Source: an uncultured Gemmatimonadales bacterium (GTDB lineage Bacteria; Gemmatimonadota; Gemmatimonadetes; Gemmatimonadales; GWC2-71-9). From it: a stretch of 64,000 nt of DNA. The stretch is taken from the NCBI GenBank assembly GCA_963730185.1, contig CAVSQW010000012.1:160001-224000 (forward strand), read 5' to 3'. Position numbers and translations under genes: made by a program. Shown piece after piece: positions 9,455 to 51,317 of this stretch (position 1 is the stretch's first letter; the number at the start of each line of letters is the position of its first letter). Under the pieces are notes generated by a model, which was not told the DNA's origin, made no database searches, and was given only the letters and a program-made list of their open reading frames with translations.

Positions 9455-12127
9455 CTAACGTCGGGGCGAGGGGCGACCCGGCGCCCCGCCGAGCTCCAGC
9501 CGAACCGACTCGACCTCCACCCCGTAGACCCCGCGCCTGGCCGGCGGTCCCGGCTCGGGGCGGAGCGAGAGCTGCAGTCGCTCGAGCTCCGCCGGGCGGA
9601 GGTGATCTCCGGCGCCACCCCGCCCCGCCGCCGGGCCCACCCAGTAGCTCCAATTGCCCGGGAACCCCTGCGGAAGGAGCACCCCCCGGCCGGCCTGGAA
9701 CGCCGCCAGTGGGATGGTTCGTTCGGTCCAGCCGGAATCGACGGTCACGGGCGCGGTCCAGCTGGTCCCGTCGGCCTCCATCAGGGTCAGGTGGAGTGTC
9801 TGGCGAGGGCCAAGGCCGCGAAGCCGGATTCGGACCGCGCCGGCTCGGGCGATCGCGTCGTGGCGGGCCCGGATCCGATCCTCGATCACCAGCGACGCGG
9901 TGTAGTCCGGGGGGCTCCAGCCGTTCGGCGCGACCGGCAGCTCGAGGTGAAAGACCGGCCGGCCGGTGACCTCGGACAAGCCCACCCGGAAGAGACCCAG
10001 CCGACCGGCGTCGCCGATCCGCGTGAAGGCCAGCCGACGCGCATCGGTTCCAGGAGCGAACAGAGTCACCGGGGTGGCCTCGCCGACCATCGTGAGGCTC
10101 CAGGCGGCGCCGTCGTAGTCGTTCCAGGCGCCCGGCCGCTCCGATCGGGCTCCCGGAAAGGTCGTTCCCGTCCCGGCGCGGTAGAGCGTGATCACGAACC
10201 GGTACGGCCCTTCCGCGAGGGTCTCGCCGGGAATGGCAGCCCGGTAGCGATAGCCGCCGGCCGGCGCCATCGGGTATCGTCGGTAGAAGCCGCCGGCCGC
10301 CGGCCGAATCCAGAGCGCGACCGAGTCGGGCGGCTGGTCGTCGACCACCCGCGCGGTGAGCTCGATCGGCCGGCCGGCCAGGAATGCCGGCGCGGCCAGC
10401 GACTCGATCGAGGGTGGCAGTGATTCCACCGGCGGGGGATGGTACTCGGCGAAGCCGATCCGGCCGAGGGTGGCCGGCAGGGTGGCGGGATCGACCGCGC
10501 CGCCGGCGCTCAGGACGTACACGCCGGGTCGGACGGTAAAGCGGCCCCCTTCGGCCCGCTGCTCGGTCGGGTTCCCGGCGGAGATCGGCTGCACCGTGAA
10601 CGAGGGTCCGAGGTCGGGGAGGTCGACCGTCATGCCCCAGGTCCGGCTGATCGCGCGGGTCACGATCTTGTCGGCGTTCGGCGGCTCGAACGGGTCGCGA
10701 ACCGGTACGGCGTCGGGATAGATCTCCAGCCGCCAGAGCCCCGACCGGACCTTGTCGAGGAAATAGATCCCTCGGCCCTCGTAGCCCACCGTGCTCGACG
10801 ATCCGAACCCGGCCACCCGGTCCAGCCGGCGGGGATCGGGTGGCACCGCCCGGGTGGAGCTGGTGTAGAGGAACGCGTCCGGCGCCACCAGCTCGCCGAG
10901 ATCGCCCTGGTACGAGACGTGGAAGTCGCCGAACCTCGTGTTCGCGGGATAGGACCCGTACGACTTCATCCGGGGCAGGCGGCGCATCGCCTCCGCCGCG
11001 ATGATCGCGCTCATCGCCTTTCGCGGGGTGTAGACCAGGTTCAGGTAGTGGGTCTGCCACCCCAGGTTCCGGGAGGCCGTCCGGAGCATGTCGTAGGAGA
11101 ACATCGCCGCGAACTGGGCGCCGACCGACCGGAAGGTCCGGACCATGGCCGGATACATCGTGCCGGTCCGGAGATCAGGGCTGTCGAATTCGTACACGAT
11201 CCGCGGGAGCCGAGCCAGCTCGGGCCGGAGCATGTCGGGGTACCCATCGGTGGTTCGGAGGTAGTTGCCCTGGAGCTCGTGACCGCTGTTGAGCCCGGTC
11301 GGATACCAGCCGAAGGTCACGCCCTGGGCCCGCGACCGGGCGATCGCCTCGCCGATCCGGAAGTCCTGGCTCACGTTGTGGAACACGAGCTTGGTACACC
11401 CGGTGCTCCGGACCGCCTCGGTGAGGGTGTCGATGTAGCGGATCGAGCCGGCCAGGTCCTCCGGGTGATGCCAGGGCTCGTTCACCAACTCGACGAAGAG
11501 GATCGCGGGCTCGTCCTTGAGGGCCACGCCGGTGTAGGGATTGACGTGGTTCAGGATCTGGCGGAGGTAGTTCACCTGAGCCGCGATGGCCTTCGGATCG
11601 GTGCCCATCGGGCCCTTCCCGAAGTGCCGTCCAAAGCCCGGCGCCGACGTGTCGGCGATCGCGTCCGGCCAGTTCGAGCCGTAGAGCTGGATCGGGCTGA
11701 ACAGCAGGTAGATCCCCCGCTCGCGAGCCCGGGCGATCAGATAGTCCAGCAGGTCGAGGTGATCGTTCGCGATCAGGTTGCCCGCGCTGTCGGACGCTTC
11801 CCAGTCTCCCCAGAAGGTGAGCCGGATCCCGTCCCATCCCATCCGGGCGAATTGGGCCATGTCCTCGTCGATCATCTGCCTGCGATCGGCGTGGACGTAG
11901 CCGGCGGCCCGATAGTCCGAGGCGGTGGTCACCACGTAGTTCGCGCCGAGCAGCGAGACCTCGGTGCCGTCGTCCCGCCAGCGAACGACGCCGGTGCTGT
12001 CGAGAAAGACGGCCCGGTCGGCCCGGATGGAGGCGGGCAGGTCGACGGACGGCCGGGTCTGGGCCGACGCCGATCCGGGGCCCGACCAGATCAGGGCCAG
12101 GGCGGCGAGGGCGAGAAGCGGTCGCAT
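9455..12127 (-). CDS. Secreted clan GH-A (GH5-like) glycoside hydrolase with C-terminal CBM-like domain; substrate unknown
   Basis: Signal peptide; HVNPYTG..KDEPAI..ELVNEP (acid/base) and IVYEFD (nucleophile); 890 aa. Confidence 0.65.
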   Translation of the reverse strand: MRPLLALAALALIWSGPGSASAQTRPSVDLPASIRADRAVFLDSTGVVRWRDDGTEVSLLGANYVVTTASDYRAAGYVHADRRQMIDEDMAQFARMGWDGIRLTFWGDWEASDSAGNLIANDHLDLLDYLIARARERGIYLLFSPIQLYGSNWPDAIADTSAPGFGRHFGKGPMGTDPKAIAAQVNYLRQILNHVNPYTGVALKDEPAILFVELVNEPWHHPEDLAGSIRYIDTLTEAVRSTGCTKLVFHNVSQDFRIGEAIARSRAQGVTFGWYPTGLNSGHELQGNYLRTTDGYPDMLRPELARLPRIVYEFDSPDLRTGTMYPAMVRTFRSVGAQFAAMFSYDMLRTASRNLGWQTHYLNLVYTPRKAMSAIIAAEAMRRLPRMKSYGSYPANTRFGDFHVSYQGDLGELVAPDAFLYTSSTRAVPPDPRRLDRVAGFGSSSTVGYEGRGIYFLDKVRSGLWRLEIYPDAVPVRDPFEPPNADKIVTRAISRTWGMTVDLPDLGPSFTVQPISAGNPTEQRAEGGRFTVRPGVYVLSAGGAVDPATLPATLGRIGFAEYHPPPVESLPPSIESLAAPAFLAGRPIELTARVVDDQPPDSVALWIRPAAGGFYRRYPMAPAGGYRYRAAIPGETLAEGPYRFVITLYRAGTGTTFPGARSERPGAWNDYDGAAWSLTMVGEATPVTLFAPGTDARRLAFTRIGDAGRLGLFRVGLSEVTGRPVFHLELPVAPNGWSPPDYTASLVIEDRIRARHDAIARAGAVRIRLRGLGPRQTLHLTLMEADGTSWTAPVTVDSGWTERTIPLAAFQAGRGVLLPQGFPGNWSYWVGPAAGRGGAGDHLRPAELERLQLSLRPEPGPPARRGVYGVEVESVRLELGGAPGRPSPRR

Positions 12128-12135
12128 CGGAGCTC

Positions 12136-14607
12136 CTACCGGGCGGCCGGAACGACCGGGCCCATCTCACCCGGCCCCACCGGGATGGTGATCTGGCCGT
12201 CCCGGAGACCGGGCGCGGTCGCCTTGACCACCAGCCGCCCGGCCCGGCTGGCCCGGAGAATCGCCAGGCCCCGGCCGTTGAAGACGTGACGCCGAGGGGT
12301 CCGGTAGGGGTCGTGGTCGCTCAGGTCGGCGTTGTCGAGGGCCACGAGCTCCCCGCCGGTCGCGGTGACGGTCACCAGATCGGTCGCGGTCGGCACGACC
12401 GTCCCCGCCGCGTCCACCACCTCGAATCGCACCAGGGCCACGTCGCCCGGAGCGGTGGTCAGGGTGTCCCGCTCGGCCACCAGCCGGAGCGCGGCCGGGG
12501 TCCCCGCCGTTCGGACCGAGTCGTGGCAGGCGACGGTGCCGTCGCGGGTCTTGCCCACCGCCTCGAGGAGACCGGGCTCGTACGGCACGTCCCAGGAGAC
12601 GTGGAGATCGTTGGTGGTGGGCCGGACCACCGGAAGGGCATAGGTGTTCCAACCGCCCGACACGCCCTGGGCGGGGAACTCCATCCGCTTCTCGCCGAGC
12701 GAGCGCCCGTTGAGGAACAGCTCGACGACGTTGCAGTTGCTGAACGCCACCACCGGAATCACCTGGCCTTGCCGTCCCGGCCAGTTCCAATGGGGAAAGA
12801 GATGGAGGACCGGCCGGTCGCTCCAGAGGCTCTGATAGAGGTAGTACGAGTCCTTGGGTCGGCCGGTGATGTCGAGCACCCCGGAGCCGAAGCCCTTGAA
12901 CGGCCAGGTGGCCTCGCCCAGATAGTCGACGCCGGTCCACATGAAGTCGCCCGAGAAGTAATCGTGCATGGTGATCCACTTCCAGCGGCGCTCGGCCTGG
13001 GTCATCCCGCTGGCGTAGTTGGCCCGGACCACGGCCGGGTCGTCGCCCAGCGAGTAGCGCTCGTCCCGGCTCTGGAACATGTTGCCGCTCTCGGTGCCGA
13101 CCATCTTCCAGTCGGGATGGGCGTGCCGGTCGGGCTCCGCGAAGATCTCCCGCCGCTCGTGCCACCGGTCCACGTAGTTGTAACCCACCACGTCTTCGGC
13201 GCTCAGGAACTCGGCCGAGGCGGCGTGCCCGTCGGCGGCGATCTGGTCGTTGCCGGTGGTCACCGGGCGGGTGGGGTCTTCGCGATGGAAGATGTCGAGC
13301 AGCCGCTTCAGCACCCGGACGCCGTCCGAGGCCGACTGCTCGCCGATCTCGTTCCCGGCGCTCCAGAGCACGATCGACGGGTGGTTCCGGTCGCGGTGGA
13401 CGAAGTCGACCACGTCGCGCTCCGACCACTCGTCGAAGTAGCGATGATACCCCTCGGGCACCTTCCCGATGGTCCACTCGTCGAACGCCTCGGCCATCAC
13501 CAGGAATCCCATCCGGTCGCAGAGGTCCAGGAACTCCGGCGCCGGCGGATTGTGCGAAGTGCGAATCGCATTGACCCCCATCGCCTTGAGCGCGGCCAGC
13601 CGGGTCTCCCAGATCGCCTCGGGCACCGCCGCCCCGACCGCGCCGCCGTCGTGATGGAGGTTCACCCCGCGGAGCTTGACTCGCCGCCCGTTGAGGAGAA
13701 AGCCGCGATCGGCGTCCCAGGCGATCGACCGGACCCCGAACCGGGTGGCGATCTGGTCGACCGCGCGCGGCCCGTCCAGCACCTCGCTCCGGGCCGTGTA
13801 GCGATCCGGCGTCTCGACCGACCAGAGCCGGGGGTCGGTCAGCTCGACCCGCTGCTCCACCTCGGTCGCTTCGCCCGCGGCCAGAGTGAAGGGCGTCTCG
13901 ATCCGGGCCGCCTCGCGACCGGCGGGATCCTCGATGACGGTCCGCAGCACCCCCCGCCCGGCGGAGCTCCGATGGTTCTCGACCCGGGTGCGGAGCCGCA
14001 CCTCGGCGCCGGCGGAGTCCGCCCGCGGCGTGGTGACATACGCGCCCCAATGACCGACGTGGAGCCGATCGACCGCGGTGAGCCAGACGTGCCGGTAGAT
14101 GCCGCTCCCGGTATACCAGCGCGAGTTCGGCTGGCGCGAGTTGTCCACCCGGACCGCCACGACATTGACCCCGGACACGAGATGATCGGTCACGTCGTAC
14201 CCGAAGCTGGCATAGCCGAAGGGCCGCCGTCCGAGATGATGGCCGTTGATCCAGACGTCGCTGTTCATGTAGACGCCGTCGAACTCGAGCCACACCTCGC
14301 GGTCGCGGCCCCGAGCGCCGTCCGGCAGCCGGAACGCCTTCCGATACCAGCCGATGCCCGACGGGAAGTAACCCATCGACCCACCGCCCGGCGCGGGCTC
14401 GCTGGGGGCGCCCTCGATACTCCAGTCGTGGGGGAGATCCACCCGGCGCCAGCTCCGGTCGTCGAAGCCGGGGCGATCGGCCCCGGCCGGATCGCCCACC
14501 ACGAAGCGCCAACCCGGGTCCATCGCATAGCGCTGGCGCTGAGCCTGACCCGGGACGGTGCCCAGCGAGATGGCCACCGCCACGAGCAGCAGAGTCGAAC
14601 GAACCAT
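12136..14607 (-). CDS. GH2 beta-galactosidase-like glycoside hydrolase, secreted
   Basis: LPHDWSIE, FDGVYMNS, RWYTGSGIYR, RTSHNPP, WSAGNE and WTGVDYLGE. ATG 14607 has a GAAGGAAGG RBS. Confidence 0.9.
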   Translation of the reverse strand: MVRSTLLLVAVAISLGTVPGQAQRQRYAMDPGWRFVVGDPAGADRPGFDDRSWRRVDLPHDWSIEGAPSEPAPGGGSMGYFPSGIGWYRKAFRLPDGARGRDREVWLEFDGVYMNSDVWINGHHLGRRPFGYASFGYDVTDHLVSGVNVVAVRVDNSRQPNSRWYTGSGIYRHVWLTAVDRLHVGHWGAYVTTPRADSAGAEVRLRTRVENHRSSAGRGVLRTVIEDPAGREAARIETPFTLAAGEATEVEQRVELTDPRLWSVETPDRYTARSEVLDGPRAVDQIATRFGVRSIAWDADRGFLLNGRRVKLRGVNLHHDGGAVGAAVPEAIWETRLAALKAMGVNAIRTSHNPPAPEFLDLCDRMGFLVMAEAFDEWTIGKVPEGYHRYFDEWSERDVVDFVHRDRNHPSIVLWSAGNEIGEQSASDGVRVLKRLLDIFHREDPTRPVTTGNDQIAADGHAASAEFLSAEDVVGYNYVDRWHERREIFAEPDRHAHPDWKMVGTESGNMFQSRDERYSLGDDPAVVRANYASGMTQAERRWKWITMHDYFSGDFMWTGVDYLGEATWPFKGFGSGVLDITGRPKDSYYLYQSLWSDRPVLHLFPHWNWPGRQGQVIPVVAFSNCNVVELFLNGRSLGEKRMEFPAQGVSGGWNTYALPVVRPTTNDLHVSWDVPYEPGLLEAVGKTRDGTVACHDSVRTAGTPAALRLVAERDTLTTAPGDVALVRFEVVDAAGTVVPTATDLVTVTATGGELVALDNADLSDHDPYRTPRRHVFNGRGLAILRASRAGRLVVKATAPGLRDGQITIPVGPGEMGPVVPAAR

Positions 14608-40977: not shown

Positions 40978-41613
40978 CTACCGCTCGCGCCGCCGCCCGG
41001 CCGGGCGGGGTCGGGCGCCGCGCCCGGCGCGCGGGACCAGGGTCGTCATCGCCGCGAGCACCTCGTCGAACGAGGGCATGGCGCCGACCACCGGCGTCAT
41101 GGTGGCCACCTCGAATCCGGGGCCGGGATCGAGGACGTGACGGCCGTCCGCCCTGAGCCGGGCGACGTTCCGGCACACGGCCGGCTGGGCCCACATGGCA
41201 GGATTCATCGCGGGCACGAAGAGCACCGGGCACGAGGCCGCCAGGATGGCGGCCGTCGGTCCGTCGTCGGCCAGGCCGTGCGCCGCGCGAGCCAGCAAGT
41301 TGGCGGTGGCGGGAAGCGCCACCACCAGATCGGCCCCGGCGACCGCTTCGACATGAGGCACCAGGAGATCGGCGGGCGCGTCGAAGAGGTCGAGCACCGG
41401 CTCGAGCCCGGTGACGACCCGGACGGCGTACGGCGTGACGAACCGGCGGGCGGCGGCCGAGAGGAAGACCCGCACGGTCGGCGCGAAGGTACGCCGCACC
41501 AGGAAGAGAAAAGCCGGCAACATGACGGCCGCGACGGCGCCCGACGCCGCCACGACCACCGACTCGCAGACCTTCGCCTCGGGAAGCGGATCGGGCGGGG
41601 ACTTTCTGGGCAT
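40978..41613 (-). CDS. Stand-alone HFCD flavoprotein, LanD/EpiD/MrsD-type peptidyl-cysteine decarboxylase
   Basis: SGAVAA, catalytic PHV, PATANLLARAAHG and PAMNPAMW. The clamp reads GFEVAT (like EpiD FEIS and MrsD FEIAT) and lacks the LACG Cys of PPC decarboxylases. No CoaB domain. Confidence 0.8.
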   Translation of the reverse strand: MPRKSPPDPLPEAKVCESVVVAASGAVAAVMLPAFLFLVRRTFAPTVRVFLSAAARRFVTPYAVRVVTGLEPVLDLFDAPADLLVPHVEAVAGADLVVALPATANLLARAAHGLADDGPTAAILAASCPVLFVPAMNPAMWAQPAVCRNVARLRADGRHVLDPGPGFEVATMTPVVGAMPSFDEVLAAMTTLVPRAGRGARPRPAGRRRER

Positions 41614-41665
41614 GGGCGGCTCGGAGCGGAGTGAGCCCCAATCTAACGATCGAGCGAGGTGAGCG

Positions 41666-43088
41666 ATGCTGGGAATCCCGTACCCGACCCGCCGGCTCAG
41701 GGCCCGTCACCACCACCAGCTGCTCGTCCGGTTCCGCGACGAGGCGATCGAGAGCGCCGGCAGTCGCATTCTCGCGCGCGAGCATCCCGGCCTGGCGCTC
41801 TTGCACCAGCACGATCGGGCGGGAAGGCTCCGGCGCTTCGTCTCACTGCATCCCCGGGTGCAGTGCGATCTCTCGGCCGATCGCGGCGCCCGGGTGACCG
41901 GCGGGTTCCAAGCCGCGGCGCGCTTCCACCGCCGCGAGGACCTGCTGGGTCACCACGCCCGGGCCTTCCTGGTGGAAGTCGAGTCGAGGACCGCAGACGC
42001 CGTGAGCGACCTCCGGCGAGCCCTGGCGGCCGACCCGAACGTGGAGCACGTGGAGATCGCTCCGATGCGATATCTCTGGGCGGCGCCACCGACGCGCGCG
42101 CCGGACGGGCTTCCCCCGACCCGCCATTGGAACCTGGACCGGATCCACTTCTGGGCCGCCGTCAACCGGAAGGGCTTCAAGAACGCGGACGGGATTCCGG
42201 TGGCGGTGCTCGACTCGGGCGTCCAGACCGACCACCCGGCGCTTCGTCATTCCGTCCACCGCTACATCGTCTCGCGGCACGCCGCGCCGGGACTGGGGCG
42301 CCACGACCTGATCGGCCACGGGACCCACGTGTCGGGCATCATCGCGGCCCGCCGGCGCCGCGCCATGGACCCCCGGGGAATCTGCCAGTGCGACCTCCGG
42401 GTCTGGAAGATCTTCGACGACGAGCCGAGCTACGACGACCAGATCAAGGTCTTCTATTACACCGTGGACATGGCGCTCTACCTCCAGGCGATGGTGGACT
42501 GCCTCCTTCAGCGGGTGAAGGTGATCAACCTGAGCCTCGGTGGACCGGCCAAGCCGGGGCGAAAGAGCCAGGAGCGGATCCTGTACGACGACCTCATCGC
42601 CCAGGGAGCCACCCTGGTGGCCGCGATGGGCAACGCGCGGGCGGCGGGGAGCCCGCCGTCGTATCCGGCCGCGCTGCCGGGGGTGGTGGCGGTCGGGGCC
42701 GTGGGCCTCGACGATCGGGTGGCGCCCTTCTCGAGCCGGGGGCGGCACATCGCGCTCGCGGCGCCGGGGGTCTCGATCTGGTCGACCTTGCCCAACTACG
42801 CCGGGCAAATCGGCTTCCACCCCCGGCGCGGGGTCCGGGGCACCCCCGGGTCGGGGCGGCGATGCCCAGGAACACCGGGGGAGACGCCTGGCCCGGCACG
42901 TCGATGGCGACCCGCACGTGACCGCCGCCGCCGCGCTGCTCCTGGCCAATCGAGGCACCATGAGCGGTTCCGACGTTCGCCAGGCCTTGATGAAGAGCGC
43001 GGGACCGCTGGCCGGCATGAAGCGGAGCCGCTGGACCCCCGATCACGGCGCCGGCATGCTCGATCTCGCCAAGCTGCTCGCCCCCTGA
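41666..43088 (+). CDS. S8 subtilisin-like protease without signal peptide (candidate RiPP leader peptidase); two frameshifts near 42860 and 42912
   Basis: VAVLDSG (Asp), GHGTHVSG (His), AAMGN (oxyanion Asn). GTSMAT and PHVTAAAALL (Ser) are recovered across the frame changes. Confidence 0.8.
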
Positions 43089-43122
43089 CTCCAATCCCGC
43101 CGCATCGACCCGGAGTGATCCC

Positions 43123-44623
43123 TTGAGCGCTCCCCAGAAGCCAACCGTCCCGGTCCCGCAGGGCATGCTGTCCGATCTCGATCCGCTCGCGACCCCCGGC
43201 CCGAAGAAGACGGTGGTGGTGCTCGGGGCGGGGCTGGCCGGGCTCTCCGCCGCCTACCAGCTGGTGCGAGCCGGCCACCAGGTCACCGTCGTCGAGGCGC
43301 GCGACCGGGTGGGAGGGCGGATCGAGACCATCCGGACGCCGTTCACGGACGGCCAGTACGCGGAAGCGGGCGCCCTGTTCCTTCCGGCGCACCATCCGCT
43401 CACGATGGGATATGCCCAGCAGTTCAAGCTGCCGCTGGTCACGATCTCAACCTCCAAGGATCCCTGCCTCTGGTACGTGAACGGAGCCCGGATCGCGAAC
43501 CCGACCGACCCCGCCGCGGCCTGGCCGTTCCCGCTCTGGCCCGAGGAACAGAGGGGCGGAATCATCGGGATGATGACCCAGTACGTGCTCGGGCCGGTCG
43601 GGTCGGTCGGCGATCCGCGAGCCGCCGGATGGCCGCCGGCGACCGTGGCCCAGTACGACACCATGTCGCTCTGGGAGCTGCTCCGCTCCCGCGGGGCGTC
43701 ACCGGGCGCGATCAGCATCGTCCGCCGGGGTTACCTCGACCTCTCGGGCGACGGCATCGAAGCCTGCTCGGCGCTGGCCATCCTCCGCGACCTGGCCTCG
43801 CAGAGTGGCGGGATGCCGCCCCACCACCGGATCAAGCCGCCCCCCAACCCGGACGCCGACGATCCCTTGCTCGAGCACAGCATCACCGGCGGGAACGACG
43901 CCTTGCCTCGCGCCTTCGCGGCCCAGCCCGAGCTGGCGGGCAAGATCACCTTGAGCACACCGATCGCCCGGCTCGAAGCCGGCGCCGGCGGCCGGGTGGC
44001 CTGCGTGGCCGCCGACGGCCGGCGGTTCGAGGGCGATCAGGTGATCTGCACCATTCCCTTCTCGGTCCTTCGCACCCTGGACCTGGCCGTGCCCCTCTCC
44101 GACGCCAAGCGCCGGGCGATCGCCCGGCTGGAGCACACGTCCGTAACCCGCACCTTCCTGCAGTGTTCGCGTCGGCTCTGGCGGGAGCGGCAGATGCCGT
44201 GGGTGGCGAACACCGACCTCGACGTGATGTGGCTCAACGAACCGACCGCCGATCAGACCGGCACCCCCGGGATCCTCGAGTCGTTTGCGGCCGGGCCGGC
44301 CGCCCGCCGGTTCGCCGCGATGGCCGAGGCCGACCGGCACCAAGCGGTGGCGGAGGAGATGGATCAGCGTCTATCCCGGGGTCAAGGCGCTGATGCAATG
44401 CGGCGCCTCGAAGTGCTGGGACCAGGATCCCTGGGCCCGAGGCGATTACTGCTGGTTCCTGCCCGGCGACATGCGGGCCCTGGGACCGACCTTGCCGGCG
44501 GCGGAAGGAAACGTGCACTTCGCCGGGGACCACACGTCGGTGATGCCGGGATGGATTCAGGGCGCGTTCGAGAGCGGACACCGGGCGGCGCAGGAGGTCA
44601 ACGCCGCCCCGGCCGGGTCGTGA
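43123..44623 (+). CDS. Flavin monoamine oxidase / L-amino-acid oxidase family protein; one frameshift near 44368
   Basis: GAGLAGL..EARDRVGGR and AEAGA. The C-terminal WDQDPWARG..HFAGDHTS..WIQGAFESG is in frame 44285..44623. Confidence 0.8.
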
Positions 44624-44630
44624 CGGCGGG

Positions 44631-46016
44631 TCAGTCGGCCGGAGTTCCCAGGAGGAACTCGCCCACCGGCGACTCCGCTTCGTAGCGGGTTCCGATGGCC
44701 TCGAGCAGGAGATCGGCCGGGCCCGAGCCGAGGGCGCAGGGCGCCAGGTTCATGGCGGTGGCGACGAGGTACATGGTCTGGAGCAGCACCCCGACGTCCT
44801 TGAGGACCACCGCGTAGGTGATGCCTTCGTATTTCCAGGACACCCGGCGAAAGCGAGCGGTCAGGACCAGCAGCACCTGGTGTTCGTGGGTCCCGTACTC
44901 GCCCACGTTCACGTGGGCGAGTAGCCGGCGGACCAGCGACGGGTGGCCCAGCGACTCGAGCCCGTGCCGGCCCGGGTCGTAGTGGTAGATCCCCCGAGCC
45001 AGCCCGCGGCACCGGTTCACGGCAAGGTAGATCTCCAGCTCGTAGCAGGCGCCGCCGCCGGGATAGGGCCGGCGGCTGGCCGGATAGAGGAGCTCCTTGC
45101 CGTCGGCGGGGATCGCGGTGTCGAGCCGGGCCGCGCGATGGAGGAACTCGCCTAGCATGTCGCGATCGATCGCGCGACGGGCGTGGCGGCGCCGACTCCG
45201 TCGCGCCTCGAGGACCTCGGTGAAGGAACGGTCGCGACGGCGAAGTCGGGCCAGGTCGGCTCGGGGCAGCGCGATGAAGGCGCCGGCCGCCGGTGGACGG
45301 GTGACTGGCGCGGGCGCCACGTCGCGGAAGGGATAGGTGGCGCCGGTCGGACCGTCGCGGCGGCCGGGCCGGCTCCGGGCGTGAAAGAGGAGATCCACCG
45401 GGCTCCACCCTACCAGATCGGGATCGAGCGCCTCGGCCGCCCTTCCTTCCGGGCACCGGCTCACCAGCTCGGCCGCGGCCAGCAGCTGGACCAGCTCGCC
45501 CGCGACGCGAACGCTCACGCCGGCCGCCGCCGCCAGCTCGGCGACGGTGCCGGGCCGGCTCAGATGCGACACCAGCGCCATGCCCGCCGGCGTGGGCAGC
45601 TCCACTCGAAGGCCGGAGCGCGGGGTCTCGAGCGACCAGCCATCGTCGCGCCGGGTCAGGACGGCGAAGCGGGAGAGCACCATCGGGCCGTCGAGCGGCG
45701 GAGCCGGCGCCACCGGCGCGCCGGCCATCGGGGTGAGCCGAGCCAGCACCCGACGCCGGTGCCGGAGACTGACCACGACGGCGCCGGCCCGGCGGAGCCG
45801 ATGCAGGAAGTGGATCCAGGCCGCCAGCGCGATCGGATCATCGGCGGCTCGCGCCGCCGCCAGCTCGGCCTCGGAGCCGCCGACCGCCAGAACGCGCAAC
45901 GCGCGCCGGACCCCCTGGTCCGGCGCGCGCCACGTGACCGTACGACGGCCCGATCGGACTGCGACGGCCCGCGGCGTCTCGATCGCTCGAGTGCCGGAGG
46001 CCAGTGTGAAGATCAG
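44631..46016 (-). CDS. SagB/McbC-type FMN-dependent azoline dehydrogenase
   Basis: Nitroreductase motifs RRSRR, RPYPGGGACYELEIY, GIYHYDP, catalytic WKY and QTMYLVATAMNLAPCALG. Start uncertain; placed at the CTG overlapping the precursor stop. Confidence 0.85.
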   Translation of the reverse strand: MIFTLASGTRAIETPRAVAVRSGRRTVTWRAPDQGVRRALRVLAVGGSEAELAAARAADDPIALAAWIHFLHRLRRAGAVVVSLRHRRRVLARLTPMAGAPVAPAPPLDGPMVLSRFAVLTRRDDGWSLETPRSGLRVELPTPAGMALVSHLSRPGTVAELAAAAGVSVRVAGELVQLLAAAELVSRCPEGRAAEALDPDLVGWSPVDLLFHARSRPGRRDGPTGATYPFRDVAPAPVTRPPAAGAFIALPRADLARLRRRDRSFTEVLEARRSRRRHARRAIDRDMLGEFLHRAARLDTAIPADGKELLYPASRRPYPGGGACYELEIYLAVNRCRGLARGIYHYDPGRHGLESLGHPSLVRRLLAHVNVGEYGTHEHQVLLVLTARFRRVSWKYEGITYAVVLKDVGVLLQTMYLVATAMNLAPCALGSGPADLLLEAIGTRYEAESPVGEFLLGTPAD

Positions 46017-46378
46017 CAGACGAGTGTCGCGGTGAACTGCGCCGCGAGCTTTCGGTGGCTCCCCTTGTTCGACTCGCGAATCCCGCGGGGCTTGGGCGGC
46101 ACCACCAGATGGTAGTGGCCCTTCCCTTCCTCGTGAATGTGCACCTTGGCGCCGGGCGGCAAGGTGATGCCTTCCTCCTTGAGCACCTTCTTGGGGTTGG
46201 CCTTGACCCGCTTCCGGTATTCCGGATCGCCCCACATCCCGGCGATGAACCGAGCGTAGCGCTTCTGGTCGCGCGGGGAGCTCTTCTTCGCCTTCTTCGC
46301 GGTCGACCGCTTGGCCGAGGCCTTTCTGGCCGGCCGCTTCGCGGTCTTCTTTGCCGACTTTCTAGTCGTCTTTTTCAT
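46013..46378 (-). CDS. NHLP (nitrile hydratase-like leader) RiPP precursor, 121 aa, with basic N-terminal tail and C-terminal ...AQFTATLVC
   Basis: ATG 46378 with AAGGAG 7 nt upstream. NHLP-like RFIAGMWGDPEYRKRVKANPKKVLKEEGITLPPGAKVHIHEE..HLVVPPKP. Lies between YcaO and SagB. Confidence 0.85.
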   Translation of the reverse strand: MKKTTRKSAKKTAKRPARKASAKRSTAKKAKKSSPRDQKRYARFIAGMWGDPEYRKRVKANPKKVLKEEGITLPPGAKVHIHEEGKGHYHLVVPPKPRGIRESNKGSHRKLAAQFTATLVC

Positions 46379-46439
46379 CCGCCCGCTCCTTGCTGTATGA
46401 GTTGAAGAGCTACGGCATGCGACGGGACCGACGCCGGGG

Positions 46440-46468
46440 GATATAGGCGCATTGCGGATGCGGCGCAA
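46440..46468 (-). promoter_or_regulatory. Candidate internal sigma70 promoter for the precursor gene
   Basis: On the minus strand, TTGCGC (46468-46463), N17, TATATC (46445-46440), starting 2 bp after the YcaO stop. Confidence 0.5.
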
Positions 46469-46470
46469 GC

Positions 46471-48681
46471 TCAGACGAAGAGCGGCACCGGGTTGAGTAA
46501 CCGCTCCGCGCTCCGTCGACGCCGGTGGCCGAGCCGCACCGGCACGTCGTAGAGACGGCCGGCGCCGAACCGGGCCCAGAAGTGACGGAGCCCCGGTACG
46601 ATCGCCTTGACGACGGGGACCCCGATGTCGGGACGGGTCTGATCGAGGACCAACAGATCGAGTCCGAGCCGCTCGAGCCGCGCCCGACAGGTGCTCAGGT
46701 CGGCCGCGACGCCGCCGCGTGCCAGCGCCAACGAAGTCGGCAACCCAACCCGCCGACCCGGGCGAGGCGAGAGGTGGGGATGCTCGCGAAGGACGGCGTG
46801 CCGGAGCCAACGACCGACCGCGCTCCGCGCCGCTCCAGGCTCGCGGTCCAACTCGAGCGCGGCGGCCAGGAGCTGCCCCATCTCGGCGAGGCTCCGGCGG
46901 AGGGCGACCGCCGGGTCGAGATGGGCGCCCATCCCGAACACGATCCGATCGGCGCCTCGCCCGTTCTCACCCGACAGCGCGACGTAGGTCGGAACGCCAA
47001 CGTCGCTGGTGGCGTCCAGCACCCAGATCCGGCGACCCAGGGTCCGGTACGCGGCGATGAGCCCTCGCACCCAGGGATCGTCGATCCGACCGAGATCCAC
47101 GCCCGGCAGCCGAAGTCGGTTGTACCACCAGATTGCCACGCCATCGCGCTCGATCAGCTCGAGCAGCCCCGCCAGCACCGCGTCTTCGAAAGTCTCGCCA
47201 GCGGCACAGCCGTTGGAGTCAGCCCAGCCGAAGCCGTCGGGCGCGGCCTCCGGATGGCCGAAATAGAGGAGCGCCGTCGGCAGGTAGCGAGGAGCCCGGC
47301 GGGTAAGCGACCAGACCGGGGTCCAGTCGAGGACCGACTCGGGGTCGAACGGCGTGGGCACCCGCGCGGTCGGACCCACGCGCGCGTTCCATCGGCGGCG
47401 GCCGCGATACTGCGCCGGGCTGAAGAGGAGACACTCGTTGGGATGGATGGCGCGATCGCCCAGGGCGCGGAACGTGCTTCGGATCCGGGGCTCGTCGCCT
47501 TGGAACACGCCCGAGTAGCGCTCGATCGCCTCGGCCATGGCGCTGGCCCGCGCTTCCGCGTCGGTGGTTCCCTTCCCGCCGCACTGCATTCGGAGATCGA
47601 CCGACCGCCAGCCGGTTCCGCCCCAGACCCGGGCGCTGTTGGCGCCGGCGGCGTAGGCGTGGACGCCCAACCCGGCCCCGACCTCGAGCGGCGCAAGGTC
47701 CCGGATCACGCCGGTCACGTCATCGACCAGCGCGTCGTGCCGGGCCACGAACACCTCCGGCGGGTCCCGGCGCCGGCCGGTGCCCCAGGACCGGAGCCGC
47801 GGCGCGATGCGAGCGGCGCTCAGGGGGGGCGCGACCCCGACCCGTTCGGCGTAGAGGCCGGCGTCGCCGCAGGCCGGGCATTGCGGCCGGCGGTCCACCC
47901 GATGGCGGCGCACGGACGCGTCGACGAGATCGAAGGTCAGCAGGTGGCGGCTCAGCAGCCCGCCGTCGCCCGTGGCCCACCGCTCGAGCTGCACCGCGAA
48001 GAGACCGATCGCCGCCCGAAGCGAGGCGCCGGTCCACCCGCGGGGCACCGGCCGGTCGCCGGCCTCGATTCGCTCGTCGTCGCGATTGCGGCGCACCCGA
48101 TGGGCCAGGCATTCCCAACAGGCCGTCTCTCCGGGACGAAAGACCGGTCCGAGCCAGGCCACCGTGCCCGTGGCCGCCAGCGGAACCCAGGAGCGCCCGG
48201 TCGTGAGCGCCCGGCGATTATGGGCCGCGAGGCGATCGTCCAGGTAGTCGTCCACGGCCACCAGGTCGAGCGCCGTGGCCCGCTGCCCGACCCGGATCCC
48301 GGCGGCCGCCAGCGCCTTCCGGTACCGGGCTCGTCCAGCCCGGGACCAGAACCGAAGGGTAACCCGGCACGGCACCGCCGCCGCCGACCCGGCGGCGTCG
48401 CGGAACACCTCGGCGGGGCCGACCATCCGTCCCTCCCGGAGATAGCCTCCCGCCTCGAGCCGGATCAGGGCGTAGTACACCTCGGCCGGATCGAAGCGGT
48501 CGGCCAGGCGGTCCACGATCCGGTCGACGGAGCGCCGACCGTCGAGCAGGGGGACCAGGGCGGCGTGGACCGCGCCGTGCCAGACCGCGCTCTCACGCTC
48601 CGACCTGAGCACGACCCGGTCGGGCGCGACCACCCGGGCCCGGAAGCGCGGGGCGAGCCGGGGATGCCGAACCGCCGTCAC
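46471..48681 (-). CDS. Fused RRE/E1-like-YcaO cyclodehydratase (TOMM C-D fusion)
   Basis: N-terminal RRE-like region; GPVFRPGETACWECL..RRPQCPAC (Zn site); GKGTT..AEAIERYS, DSNGCAAG..ELIERD and VPGLRHFW..GRLYDVP; Pro-rich C-terminus NPVPLFV typical of azoline-forming YcaO. Confidence 0.92.
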   Translation of the reverse strand: MTAVRHPRLAPRFRARVVAPDRVVLRSERESAVWHGAVHAALVPLLDGRRSVDRIVDRLADRFDPAEVYYALIRLEAGGYLREGRMVGPAEVFRDAAGSAAAVPCRVTLRFWSRAGRARYRKALAAAGIRVGQRATALDLVAVDDYLDDRLAAHNRRALTTGRSWVPLAATGTVAWLGPVFRPGETACWECLAHRVRRNRDDERIEAGDRPVPRGWTGASLRAAIGLFAVQLERWATGDGGLLSRHLLTFDLVDASVRRHRVDRRPQCPACGDAGLYAERVGVAPPLSAARIAPRLRSWGTGRRRDPPEVFVARHDALVDDVTGVIRDLAPLEVGAGLGVHAYAAGANSARVWGGTGWRSVDLRMQCGGKGTTDAEARASAMAEAIERYSGVFQGDEPRIRSTFRALGDRAIHPNECLLFSPAQYRGRRRWNARVGPTARVPTPFDPESVLDWTPVWSLTRRAPRYLPTALLYFGHPEAAPDGFGWADSNGCAAGETFEDAVLAGLLELIERDGVAIWWYNRLRLPGVDLGRIDDPWVRGLIAAYRTLGRRIWVLDATSDVGVPTYVALSGENGRGADRIVFGMGAHLDPAVALRRSLAEMGQLLAAALELDREPGAARSAVGRWLRHAVLREHPHLSPRPGRRVGLPTSLALARGGVAADLSTCRARLERLGLDLLVLDQTRPDIGVPVVKAIVPGLRHFWARFGAGRLYDVPVRLGHRRRRSAERLLNPVPLFV

Positions 48682-51317
48682 CTCGCGACGCTGGTCTGGA
48701 ACGGCACGTCGAGCCGGGGGTCGTCGCGGATGGCGGCGAACGCCGGGTGGGCTCGGAACCAGGCTGGCGAGAGGGTGGAGGGGACGCTCGGCACCGCCCT
48801 GATCTGGTCGATCGCGCCGGCCCGATCGCCGAGGATCAGATCGATCTCGGCCTGCTGGACGACCCAGGCCACCCCCTGGACCGCATCGCGCGCGACCGGC
48901 TGGATCGTCATCGCCGCCTGGCCTTCCTCCATGGCCCGGGCTGAGTCGCCCTCCACGGCGTACACCAGGCCGAGGTCGGCGTGATAGGCCGGCGATCCCT
49001 GATAGACATCGTGACGGGGAAGCAGCACCGCGCGCGACGAATCGAAGTACGGCCGGGCCCGGTCGGGCTGCCCCTTCCAGCGATAGTACTCGCCCTTCGC
49101 CAGGTAGAAGGCCGCGGAGTCTACCGGCAGATGGGCCAGCGAGAGACGCTCGAAGGCACCACCCAACTGCCGGTCCAGGAAGGCCAGGTGCCAGCGAAGT
49201 CGCGGGATCAGGGCCACGAACAGCGCGGTGGTGTCCGAGTGCGCCACCGCCTCGTGCATCGCTTCGTGCGCCTTGGCGGTGTCGCCATCCCGGGCCATGG
49301 CCAGGTGCGACAGCGAGTGGTAGGCCGCCACGAAGCCCGGCGCCAGGCTCGCGGCCCGCCGGTACGACTCCTCCGCCGCGTCGTACTGGCGGAGCATCTG
49401 TTCGGTCGCGCCGACTTCCATGGCGTAAGCGGGCGAGAGCGGATCGAGCTGGGCCGCCCGCTTGGCATAGTCGAGCGACTGCTCCACCTGGCCGCGCCGG
49501 CGGACCACCGAGCCCATCAGCCAGAGCAGCTCGCTGTTGTTCGGCTGGGCCGACTTCGCCTCCGAGAACTCCACCAGGGCCCGGGCCAAGTCGCCCTGCA
49601 CCCAGTAGTAGAGATAGCCGCGGGCCAATCGCGCCTCGGCGGCGGTGGAATCGAGCGCCAAGGCATGATCCACCGCCTGGCTCGCCAGCCGCTGCCGCTC
49701 CGGCGAGCGGTCGAAGAGGTAGAAGTACATCGACTGGAGCTCGCCCAGCTTGGCGAACGCGTCGAGAAAGGTCGGATCCAGGGTCGTGGCCCGGGAGAAC
49801 TCCGCGATCGCCTGGCGCATCGGGCCTTCGGCGTAGCGCTGGTTGTCGAGCGCCTCGCCCCGGAGGAAGGCCTCGTAGGCGGACATGTCGTGGGTGAGCG
49901 CCGTCTGCCGGGTGGCCCGCTCGGAGCCGACCAGGCGGACGTTGAGCTGGGCGGCCACCTGCTCCGCGATCGAGGCCTGCACTTTGAAGATCTCGCCCGG
50001 GGCGAGCGCCACGGTGTAGCTCTGGGTCCAGAGATCGTGGCCGTCGCTCACCTGGACCAGGTGAGGCACGACCCGGACCTCGCCGGAGCCGTCCGGGTGC
50101 CGCTCGGTCTGGACCGATCCGGTCAGCACGTACCCGACCCCGAGCTCCTGTCCGACCTCCCGAAGGGAGCGATCGCGGCCGGCAAAGTGGGCGGCGCTGG
50201 CCCGGGAGATGGTGCCGAGCCCGTTGATGCTCCCGATCCGGCTGGTGATCTCGTCGGTGAGCCCGTCGGCGAAGTGCTGGTCGTCCGGCGTGCCCAGGTT
50301 CTCGAGCGGCAGGACCGCGATCATCGGCGTGGCCTCGACCGCGGGCCGGGCGGGGCGAAGCAGGATGTAGCCGGCTCCGCCCCCCAGCACCACCAGGGCC
50401 CCCGCGGCGAGGAGCCAGCGGCGTCCCAAGCTCCGGCCGGCCGCCGGCGGGGCCGCGACCTCGACCGTGACCGGCCCGGCGGACGCCCGGGCCAGGGCGT
50501 CGGCGAACTCGAGCGCCGACTCGTAGCGGTCGGCCGGCACCTTGGCCATCGCCTTCTCGAGCACGCCCTGCACGGCCGTCGGGATCGCGCTCCGCACGGT
50601 GCGGACGCTCGGCACCGGATCCAGCGAGTGCCGGGCCAGCACGGCCATCGCCGACGGACCGCGAAACGGCGGCTCGCCGACCAGCATCTCGTAGGTCACG
50701 CAGCCCAGGCTGTAGACGTCGCTTCGGGCGTCGATCTGATCGACGCTGCTGGCCTGCTCCGGACTCATGTACTCGGGCGTGCCGATCGCCACGCCGGTTT
50801 GCGTCATCCGGTCGCCGCCGGCGGCCGAGACCGCCTTGGCGATCCCGAAGTCGGTGACGACCGCGGTCCCGCCGCTCAGGAGGATGTTCTCCGGCTTGAT
50901 GTCGCGATGGATCAGACCCTGGCCGTGCGCGTGGCTCAGCGCCAAGGCCACCTCGCGAGTGATCCGGCTGGTCTCGTCGAGCGTCAACGGACCGGTCCGG
51001 GCCAGCCGTTCGCGCAGGGTCTCGCCTTCGACGAACGGCATCACGTAGTAGAGGAGCCCTTGGGACTCGCCCGACTCGAAGAGCGGGACGATGTGCGGGT
51101 GCTGGAGTCCGGCGGCGATGCTGATCTCCCGGGCGAACCGGTCGGGCCCAAGCGCCGCCGCCAGCTCGGGCCGGAGCACCTTGACCGCCACCCGTCGGCC
51201 GAGGCGGACGTCCTCGGCGAGGTAGACGGTCGCCATCCCGCCGCGGCCGAGCTCGCGCTCGACCCGGTAGCGCCCGCTCAGGGCCTCGGTGACGCGGGTC
51301 TGGGCGTCGGACGACAT
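48678..51317 (-). CDS. Hanks-type Ser/Thr protein kinase with TM segment, TolB-N-like domain and TPR repeats
   Basis: LGRGGMATVY, VAVKVL, HRDIKPEN, DFG and GTPEYMSPEQ; IAVLPLENL..FADGLTDEI; TPRs. Stop overlaps the YcaO GTG. Confidence 0.92.
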   Translation of the reverse strand: MSSDAQTRVTEALSGRYRVERELGRGGMATVYLAEDVRLGRRVAVKVLRPELAAALGPDRFAREISIAAGLQHPHIVPLFESGESQGLLYYVMPFVEGETLRERLARTGPLTLDETSRITREVALALSHAHGQGLIHRDIKPENILLSGGTAVVTDFGIAKAVSAAGGDRMTQTGVAIGTPEYMSPEQASSVDQIDARSDVYSLGCVTYEMLVGEPPFRGPSAMAVLARHSLDPVPSVRTVRSAIPTAVQGVLEKAMAKVPADRYESALEFADALARASAGPVTVEVAAPPAAGRSLGRRWLLAAGALVVLGGGAGYILLRPARPAVEATPMIAVLPLENLGTPDDQHFADGLTDEITSRIGSINGLGTISRASAAHFAGRDRSLREVGQELGVGYVLTGSVQTERHPDGSGEVRVVPHLVQVSDGHDLWTQSYTVALAPGEIFKVQASIAEQVAAQLNVRLVGSERATRQTALTHDMSAYEAFLRGEALDNQRYAEGPMRQAIAEFSRATTLDPTFLDAFAKLGELQSMYFYLFDRSPERQRLASQAVDHALALDSTAAEARLARGYLYYWVQGDLARALVEFSEAKSAQPNNSELLWLMGSVVRRRGQVEQSLDYAKRAAQLDPLSPAYAMEVGATEQMLRQYDAAEESYRRAASLAPGFVAAYHSLSHLAMARDGDTAKAHEAMHEAVAHSDTTALFVALIPRLRWHLAFLDRQLGGAFERLSLAHLPVDSAAFYLAKGEYYRWKGQPDRARPYFDSSRAVLLPRHDVYQGSPAYHADLGLVYAVEGDSARAMEEGQAAMTIQPVARDAVQGVAWVVQQAEIDLILGDRAGAIDQIRAVPSVPSTLSPAWFRAHPAFAAIRDDPRLDVPFQTSVAR

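Follow-up and report, generated by a model that had tools for sequence, protein, structure and literature searches.

A candidate gene cluster for a seven-residue azole peptide with a decarboxylated C-terminus in an uncultured Gemmatimonadales bacterium

What is made of a short ribosomal peptide when the genes around it code both for azole formation and for the decarboxylation of a C-terminal cysteine? The question is raised by a stretch of 64,000 nucleotides from an uncultured Gemmatimonadales bacterium (the window; contig CAVSQW010000012.1), in which the gene for a Cys-ended precursor of the nitrile hydratase leader peptide (NHLP) family lies among those for a YcaO cyclodehydratase, a SagB-type azoline oxidase, a LanD-type decarboxylase of the HFCD family, an S8 protease, and a flavin amine oxidase, that is, in a cluster for a peptide that is made on the ribosome and then modified post-translationally (RiPP). 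From the observed genes, families, gene order, co-occurrence, and peptide ends, we infer the chemistry, the cut site, and the product, namely Phe-methyloxazole-Ala-methyloxazole-Leu-Val-thiazole without a C-terminal carboxyl, in which the HFCD would act on the last Cys before the YcaO closes it to a descarboxy thiazole. We give this reading an even chance of being right, and a descarboxy thiazole at Cys121, whichever of the two enzymes acts first, a slightly better than even one.

The evidence comes from related loci. A YcaO scan of one genome per species yielded 431 relatives, and among the best 80 of these, an HFCD gene adjoins the YcaO in 4, all four from Gemmatimonadota or Gemmatimonadales. 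Searches at the phylum, family, and genus levels gathered 20 distinct loci of the window's order-level group, the window included, leaving aside eight that belong to other families or phyla. SagB is present in 12 of the 20 (type A), joined by the amine oxidase in 8 and by the S8 protease in 4, namely the window and the loci L243, L244, and L245, with identical gene order and orientation (kinase-YcaO-NHLP-SagB-oxidase-S8). In these three sisters the stretch is free of HFCD genes, a search of their genomes (77-94% complete) found no additional stand-alone HFCD, and the precursors end in QPQITIPF, QPQITIPL, and GPQFTIPL, each with one Thr and no Cys. At the level of gene content and peptide ends, nature thus provides a control in the sister clusters, which have the same genes and neither decarboxylase nor cysteine, where the window has both. 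In type B loci (L038, L043, L050, L069, L115, and L231), a short NHLP accompanies the YcaO, and the HFCD, which is convergent, has about 290 residues; no SagB occurs in the stretches fetched for these six loci, so that the HFCD is the sole oxidant encoded there, and the two remaining loci are of neither type. All 7 type B precursors end in Cys, and since in 6 of them this is the sole Ser, Thr, or Cys of the last six residues, the YcaO and the HFCD would share one residue. Across the 20 loci, which are not independent, a terminal Cys is found in 7/7 with an HFCD versus 3/13 without (Fisher p 0.003).

The co-occurrence on which the first-pass annotation had staked its reading is thus found in part: S8, oxidase, and SagB recur with YcaO, and the HFCD/YcaO pair recurs with Cys-ended NHLPs, but SagB with HFCD was not seen elsewhere. 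The cluster family is rare: among genomes of the taxonomic family, 3 of 300 have an intact S8 orthologue and 3 of 400 a long HFCD. A search for the S8 protease across the order brought no further cluster, its one match among 380 other genomes being a locus already in the set, and two weaker S8 matches (L246, L247) lie in stretches devoid of RiPP genes. When the alignment of N-extended HFCDs was used, a phylum search found CoaBC-size matches in 262 of 401 genomes and the extended type in 1 (the unpublished-flagged genomes G057 and G097 enter this tally only), and a metagenome scan of 2 out of 64 parts found, among the matches listed, other HFCD-family genes, with a YcaO in 0 of 80 loci, which says nothing on the pairing.

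The window's HFCD (40978..41613, - strand; 211 residues; PF02441, 73.7 bits) is a stand-alone flavoprotein with the His and PxMN motifs and with neither a CoaB domain nor an N-terminal RRE-like domain. Its best solved relatives are SpaF (7cfu, 115 bits), TvaF (6jls, 83), and CoaBC (6tgv, 79), followed by MrsD and EpiD; the nearest two, SpaF and TvaF, are peptidyl-Cys decarboxylases. A quick maximum-likelihood tree of 131 domains places it outside CoaBC (SH-aLRT 99), so the clustering with CoaC that would have spoken for a housekeeping enzyme is not seen, and also outside the clade of long, N-extended HFCDs (SH-aLRT 95), among other stand-alone enzymes; because it falls outside both groups, it would represent a separate gain. 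Neither CoaBC nor CoaB was found in the window's genome (5.27 Mb, 82% complete, a scope that holds for all genome-wide searches below), and both its place in the tree and the lack of a CoaB partner speak against a role in coenzyme A (CoA) synthesis. The absence of the CoaBC-type substrate-clamp catalytic Cys was considered as a further argument against a CoaC role and rejected, because this Cys is absent from the relatives' CoaBC too and does not separate the two functions. The CoaBC proteins of the window's phylum (L207-L220) lack this Cys, which is found in many other CoaBC. The gene downstream of the HFCD, MMSDH, has a different neighbour in 3/3 same-genus genomes with a match (5 searched), so the HFCD lies outside an MMSDH operon, and the codon-position GC of the HFCD agrees with that of the cluster.

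The long HFCDs of about 290 residues, of which the protein collection holds about 50 protein clusters, begin with a three-strand, three-helix domain (model, pLDDT about 90), called RRE-like here for its weak alignment to the RRE of the YcaO (probability 30%, E 0.0006); a single-sequence model of the HFCD N-extension alone has low confidence (pLDDT 57), and whole-protein fold searches of HFCD covered the flavoprotein domain only. HFCD-methyltransferase fusions of about 490 residues (P0328, P0333, P0337, P0340, and kin) form a sister clade of the long HFCDs.

The precursor (46013..46378, - strand; 121 residues) matches PF02979 at 31.2 bits (cut-off 27.2) and TIGR03793 at 40.3 bits (E 2e-10, below the cut-off of 50.9), and is the only NHLP found in its genome. 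It carries 16 Lys/Arg within the first 33 residues, followed by the NHLP fold region, lacks a double-Gly motif, and ends in KLAAQFTATLVC, with two Thr and Cys as the last residue; the stop codon directly follows Cys121, so that there is no follower. Of the end described by the first-pass annotation, the terminal Cys and the nearby Thr stand, but not the Ser, which is missing from the last 12 residues. Two more cluster members retain the same C-terminus, and a homologue search with the precursor found its own cluster alone. The predicted core is FTATLVC (residues 115-121; 46016..46036, - strand), downstream of the junction motif LAAQ. A motif of the form [VILM]-x-[PA]-[QM]-[FLI]-[TC] precedes the core in 4/4 S8 loci and in 0/13 other aligned precursors from 12 loci, and is also found in 4/52 short NHLP representatives (shuffle mean 0.03). 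The junction fits the P4, P2, and P1 preferences of subtilisins, and a cut by the S8 protease is therefore predicted after Gln114. The Lys/Arg-rich tail that opens the precursor (46280-46378, - strand) is histone-like, a basic stretch stands ahead of the core in the L245 precursor, and basic tails close the representatives P0191, P0237, and P0247. The closest representative precursor, P0132, ends in KVALMFTSPVIC and thus in Cys, and probably belongs to the group as well.

HFCDs are described, in the part of a review that deals with them, as converting a free thiol into an enethiol while CO2 and two H are lost (PMC11350588), and the enethiol, by the account of a preprint, decays unless trapped (10.1101/2020.08.21.260521). 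In the favoured mechanism, the HFCD would oxidise and decarboxylate Cys121 to the enethiol (-46 Da), after which the YcaO, holding the NHLP leader through its RRE, would cyclodehydrate the enethiol onto the Val120 carbonyl (-18) and close Thr116 and Thr118 to methyloxazolines. The type B loci constrain this scheme, because there the YcaO and the HFCD share one residue and no other oxidase is encoded; as a matter of chemical inference, cyclodehydration of an N-acyl enethiol would give an aromatic thiazole without further oxidation. SagB would still be needed in the window, where it would oxidise the rings of Thr116 and Thr118 to methyloxazoles. The S8 protease would then cut after Gln114, and the amine oxidase would convert the amine of Phe115 that is thereby freed, beside the first oxazole, to a ketone (an alpha-keto-oxazole), a tentative proposal and the weakest step of the mechanism. 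The window's HFCD would have been acquired separately, together with the terminal Cys.

Several points weigh against this mechanism. The six-enzyme set that includes the HFCD rests on one species, since SagB and HFCD are found together in the window's species only; the sister comparison amounts to one gain event, and the association of Cys with HFCD reflects about two gains, not seven. Moreover, a last Cys needs no HFCD, because three loci of the same genus with SagB (L232 and L233, ending in ICKISC, and L234, ending in ICKFFC), as well as many loci of other phyla, have the Cys and no HFCD; 5/52 short NHLP representatives also end in Cys. The window's HFCD lacks the RRE-like domain of its counterparts, is transcribed away from the S8 gene, and lies at the cluster edge, its motifs do not exclude a CoA role, and the junction motif was derived from the same sequences in which it was counted. 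The literature searched, which took in few subscription journals, describes no YcaO with an enethiol as substrate. MprC, as far as its description extends, prefers Cys (PMC12455567), and, by analogy, with SagB at hand, the YcaO could take Cys121 first and give a thiazole-4-carboxylate. Some of these observations, specifically the same-genus ICKISC clusters, the edge position, and the missing RRE-like domain, together with the lack of a detectable CoaBC in the genome, favour the view that the HFCD is a bystander (an orphan or a CoA-pathway enzyme) and that the product of the six conserved genes is an azole peptide with a terminal thiazole-4-carboxylic acid. We consider this unlikely, given that the HFCD falls outside CoaBC and is most like SpaF and TvaF, that its CoaB partner was not found, that it begins only 52 bases from the S8 start, that the closest sisters have neither HFCD nor Cys, and that no other NHLP was found in the genome.

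Three further explanations keep the HFCD on Cys121 and differ in what follows. The YcaO might leave the decarboxylated residue open, so that the peptide would end in an enethiol or a breakdown product (thiol, aldehyde), possibly as a protease-inhibitor warhead; this is established HFCD chemistry, and TvaF alone, according to the same preprint, yields enethiol, thiol, aldehyde, and alcohol (10.1101/2020.08.21.260521). Enethiols are unstable, however, and the YcaO of the six minimal loci would have no substrate, which makes this outcome quite improbable; the free enethiol proposed by the first-pass annotation fits the comparative data less well than the descarboxy thiazole does. An aminovinyl-methyl-cysteine (AviMeCys) ring, the other C-terminus that had been suggested, would need Thr116 or Thr118 to be dehydrated, whether by the neighbouring kinase together with some lyase or by an enzyme encoded elsewhere, and then attacked by the enethiol. 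The likeness of the HFCD to the thioamitide enzymes SpaF and TvaF, the position of Thr118 three residues ahead of Cys, and a mass shift (-64) the same as that of the thiazole agree with such a ring. Nevertheless, it is very unlikely, because the cluster has no Ser/Thr dehydratase: no TvaC/D-type lyase, LanB, or lanthionine synthetase is encoded in it, a HopA1-type lyase, TfuA, and LanB were not found in the genome (the LanB control matched nowhere), and the sole LanC-like gene is on another contig. In addition, the kinase is a membrane Hanks-type protein present too in clusters without HFCD, and Ser/Thr is missing near the precursor end in the minimal loci. Lastly, the order could be reversed, with the YcaO making a thiazoline-4-carboxylate that the HFCD then decarboxylates oxidatively, a reaction for which BotCYP and LynB7 use other cofactors. 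All descarboxy thiazole routes in the part of the review concerned pass through a carboxythiazoline, whereas the HFCD mechanism given there begins with a free thiol adding to the flavin C4a (PMC11350588), and SagB would oxidise the thiazoline first; this order is likewise very unlikely.

The two enzymes assigned to the end of the pathway are coded on the + strand. The S8 gene (41666..43088; PF00082, 91.3 bits) has a prodomain and the VLDSG, GHGTH, AMGN, and GTSMA motifs but no signal peptide, scores 21 bits against a cut-off of 421 with the PatA/G model TIGR03895, and is predicted to be the leader peptidase. The amine oxidase gene (43123..44623; PF01593, 156.9 bits, spread over two frames) has the L-amino acid oxidase (LAAO) and monoamine oxidase (MAO) fold; its orthologues adjoin SagB in 7 other loci, and the solved structures nearest to them are L-amino acid oxidases. 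All 8 oxidases have Phe in place of the Arg of the LAAO motif ELGAMRIP, an Arg that binds the substrate carboxylate, and would therefore suit an amine that has no carboxylate, for example that of Phe115 when linked to an oxazole. In the assembly, the S8 gene is broken twice (near 42842 and near 42910) and the oxidase gene once (near 44368), none of which had been recorded in the first-pass annotation. A read set for the sample behind the window was not found, and the frames were checked on contigs that three other runs gave for near-identical strains (similarity about 95-97%; contig depths 2-5). One extra base is present behind 42842 in X1 and X3 and behind 42910 in X1, X2, and X3, and one base fewer at 44368 in X1 and X2. 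Because each of these differences restores the frame, the three frameshifts are most likely assembly errors. That they instead mark pseudogenes in a decaying cluster is hardly credible, given such a difference at every one of the three places and the whole orthologues of both genes, including the S8 genes of L243-L245.

The cyclodehydratase (46471..48681, - strand; PF02624 342 bits, TIGR03604 273 with a cut-off of 219, TIGR03882 114) is a fused RRE-E1-YcaO of the LynD (E 2e-153), TruD, and MusD type, ends in NPVPLFV, and is the sole YcaO found in its genome; a YcaO tree gives it no firm position. The FMN-dependent SagB/ThcOx-type oxidase (44631..46016, - strand; 461 residues) matches TIGR03605 (148.3 bits, cut-off 78.4), PF22767, and PF00881 and is closest to CyaGox (5lq4, E 3e-52). 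ATG, GTG, and TTG are absent at its expected start position, which is probably a CTG that overlaps the precursor stop codon, and a relative's contig spans the SagB-precursor junction without a gap. Profile matches (Pfam, TIGRFAM) bear out the six adjacent genes with the families and strands first assigned to them, and the gaps of 7-92 bp or overlaps reported at the outset were measured as 52 (HFCD/S8, divergent), 34, 7 (oxidase/SagB, convergent), -4, and 92 bases. A promoter and terminator scan of the cluster gave a signal no better than chance, and a look-up in the ESM Atlas returned family-level names only.

Beside these six, a seventh gene of the cluster lies beyond the YcaO and overlaps its start by four bases (48678..51317, - strand; Pfam), outside the segment first delimited. 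It codes for a Ser/Thr kinase with a transmembrane helix (residues 302-320) and a TPR region. Such a kinase lies within 1.6 kb of the YcaO in 16/20 loci and within 1.8 kb in 17/20, two of the misses being contig ends, whereas random intervals of the window's genome, which has 49 such kinases in total, have one nearby in 2.5%. A FastTree tree groups the window's kinase with those of L243 and L244 (0.87), and the other cluster subtypes form their own kinase groups; this grouping and the proximity in 16/20 loci indicate that the kinase is inherited with the cluster, and it may sense the product. As a dehydratase, the kinase was rejected on its architecture. Elsewhere, about ten Ser/Thr kinase genes that are almost identical stand in tandem (G000:C7:593799-640765).

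How does this cluster relate to known RiPP classes? Azole-containing proteusins typically have a leader that ends in double-Gly and a C39 peptidase-transporter. The window's cluster has neither (no C39 is found in the cluster, and the single genome match is on another contig), while it has a seven-residue core, the S8 protease, the amine oxidase, the HFCD, and the membrane kinase; it shares with azole proteusins (MprC/MprD/MprE; NstC/NstD of nostatin A), as they are described in part, the NHLP leader, the fused RRE-E1-YcaO, and the FMN oxidase (PMC12455567, PMC11583998). Linear cyanobactins (aeruginosamide, virenamide, and muscoride; LynD/TruD/MusD) are alike in the YcaO type, the subtilisin protease, and, in the descriptions at hand, a short core with an N-terminal Phe and a C-terminal thiazole (PMC7551963), but aeruginosamides keep a carboxylate or ester, unlike the predicted product, and the window differs in its NHLP leader, its S8 unlike PatA/G, and the absence of a follower and of a prenyl- or methyltransferase. 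Thioamitides (SpaF, or TvaF with TvaC/D/E and a TfuA-YcaO) have the most similar HFCD and likewise unite an HFCD and a YcaO in one cluster; the window's YcaO is, however, the fused azoline type and not a stand-alone one with TfuA, no TfuA was found in the genome, and the kinase-lyase dehydratase pair is missing from the cluster, PF17914 not being found in the genome either. LanB/LanC, LanM, and LanKC of the lanthipeptides with aminovinyl-cysteine (AviCys) rings are absent from the cluster, and the decarboxylase is not of the CypD family of linaridins (NF033753, 24 of 215 bits). Azolemycin, as far as it is described, is also an azole RiPP with a flavoenzyme (AzmF, oxime formation), but AzmF, which reportedly acts on the N-terminal amine, is a monooxygenase, whereas the window's oxidase has the LAAO/MAO fold. 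From the minimal cassette of YcaO and N-extended HFCD, the window differs in an HFCD that lacks the extension and groups apart, and in the presence of SagB. The C-terminal descarboxy thiazole predicted here occurs, by the review's account, in bottromycin and in lyngbyapeptin/barbamide, where a P450 (BotCYP) and a di-iron enzyme (LynB7), respectively, act on a carboxythiazoline, in place of the flavin-dependent HFCD considered here (PMC11350588).

Overall, the cluster resembles an azole proteusin with a cyanobactin-sized core, and lacks features that define double-Gly/C39 and PatA/G systems, thioamitides, lanthipeptides, and linaridins. As the first-pass annotation had proposed, it is an azole NHLP cluster of a kind that matches no class in the literature searched, where neither the pairing of an HFCD with an azole YcaO nor that of an amine oxidase with an azole RiPP was found. 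To our knowledge, the one role known for HFCDs in RiPPs is to start the formation of AviCys rings, and trapping by the YcaO would be a new fate of the enethiol and a metal-free, two-enzyme thiazole capping of a peptide. That 8/12 SagB loci retain the LAAO-fold oxidase suggests a second tailoring reaction not yet described. A 2015 survey of NHLP families reports them as lacking PatA/G-like proteases, and its main text is silent on a decarboxylase and an amine oxidase (PMC4603692). A broader view, speculative and unlikely to hold in full, is that of a new RiPP family of one bacterial order, with receptor-coupled micro-peptides, a descarboxy thiazole cap by HFCD and YcaO recruited twice, and a LAAO-fold enzyme that makes an alpha-keto-oxazole from the freed N-terminal amine; both reactions would be new among RiPPs and would meet on one seven-residue signal read by its own membrane kinase. 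The clusters stem from a poorly cultured soil group.

Other features were observed at the related loci. Beyond the S8 gene, where the window has its HFCD, L243 has a radical SAM-like gene (10007-12622) with the look of a RiPP maturase. In two type B loci, a peptidase C25-family gene, a candidate leader peptidase, lies between the YcaO and the kinase (L038:8373-9818, L069:8320-9795). An in-frame stop separates the NHLP leader from a Cys-bearing core in L012 (12150-12480; EDL*NPDTHPNLCCTF, the asterisk being the stop), through error, pseudogenization, or readthrough. In many other genomes of the same class (L090-L110), a YcaO is combined with LCCCW/LCCCG precursors and an NHLP-fused protein of 430 residues, an arrangement that resembles the sponge srp clusters. 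Lastly, repeated precursor cassettes (P-x-L-C-S; PFPMCS) occur in L035 (12076-12582), L119 (8359-8685), and L113 (1034-1456), which suggests several tiny cores per precursor.

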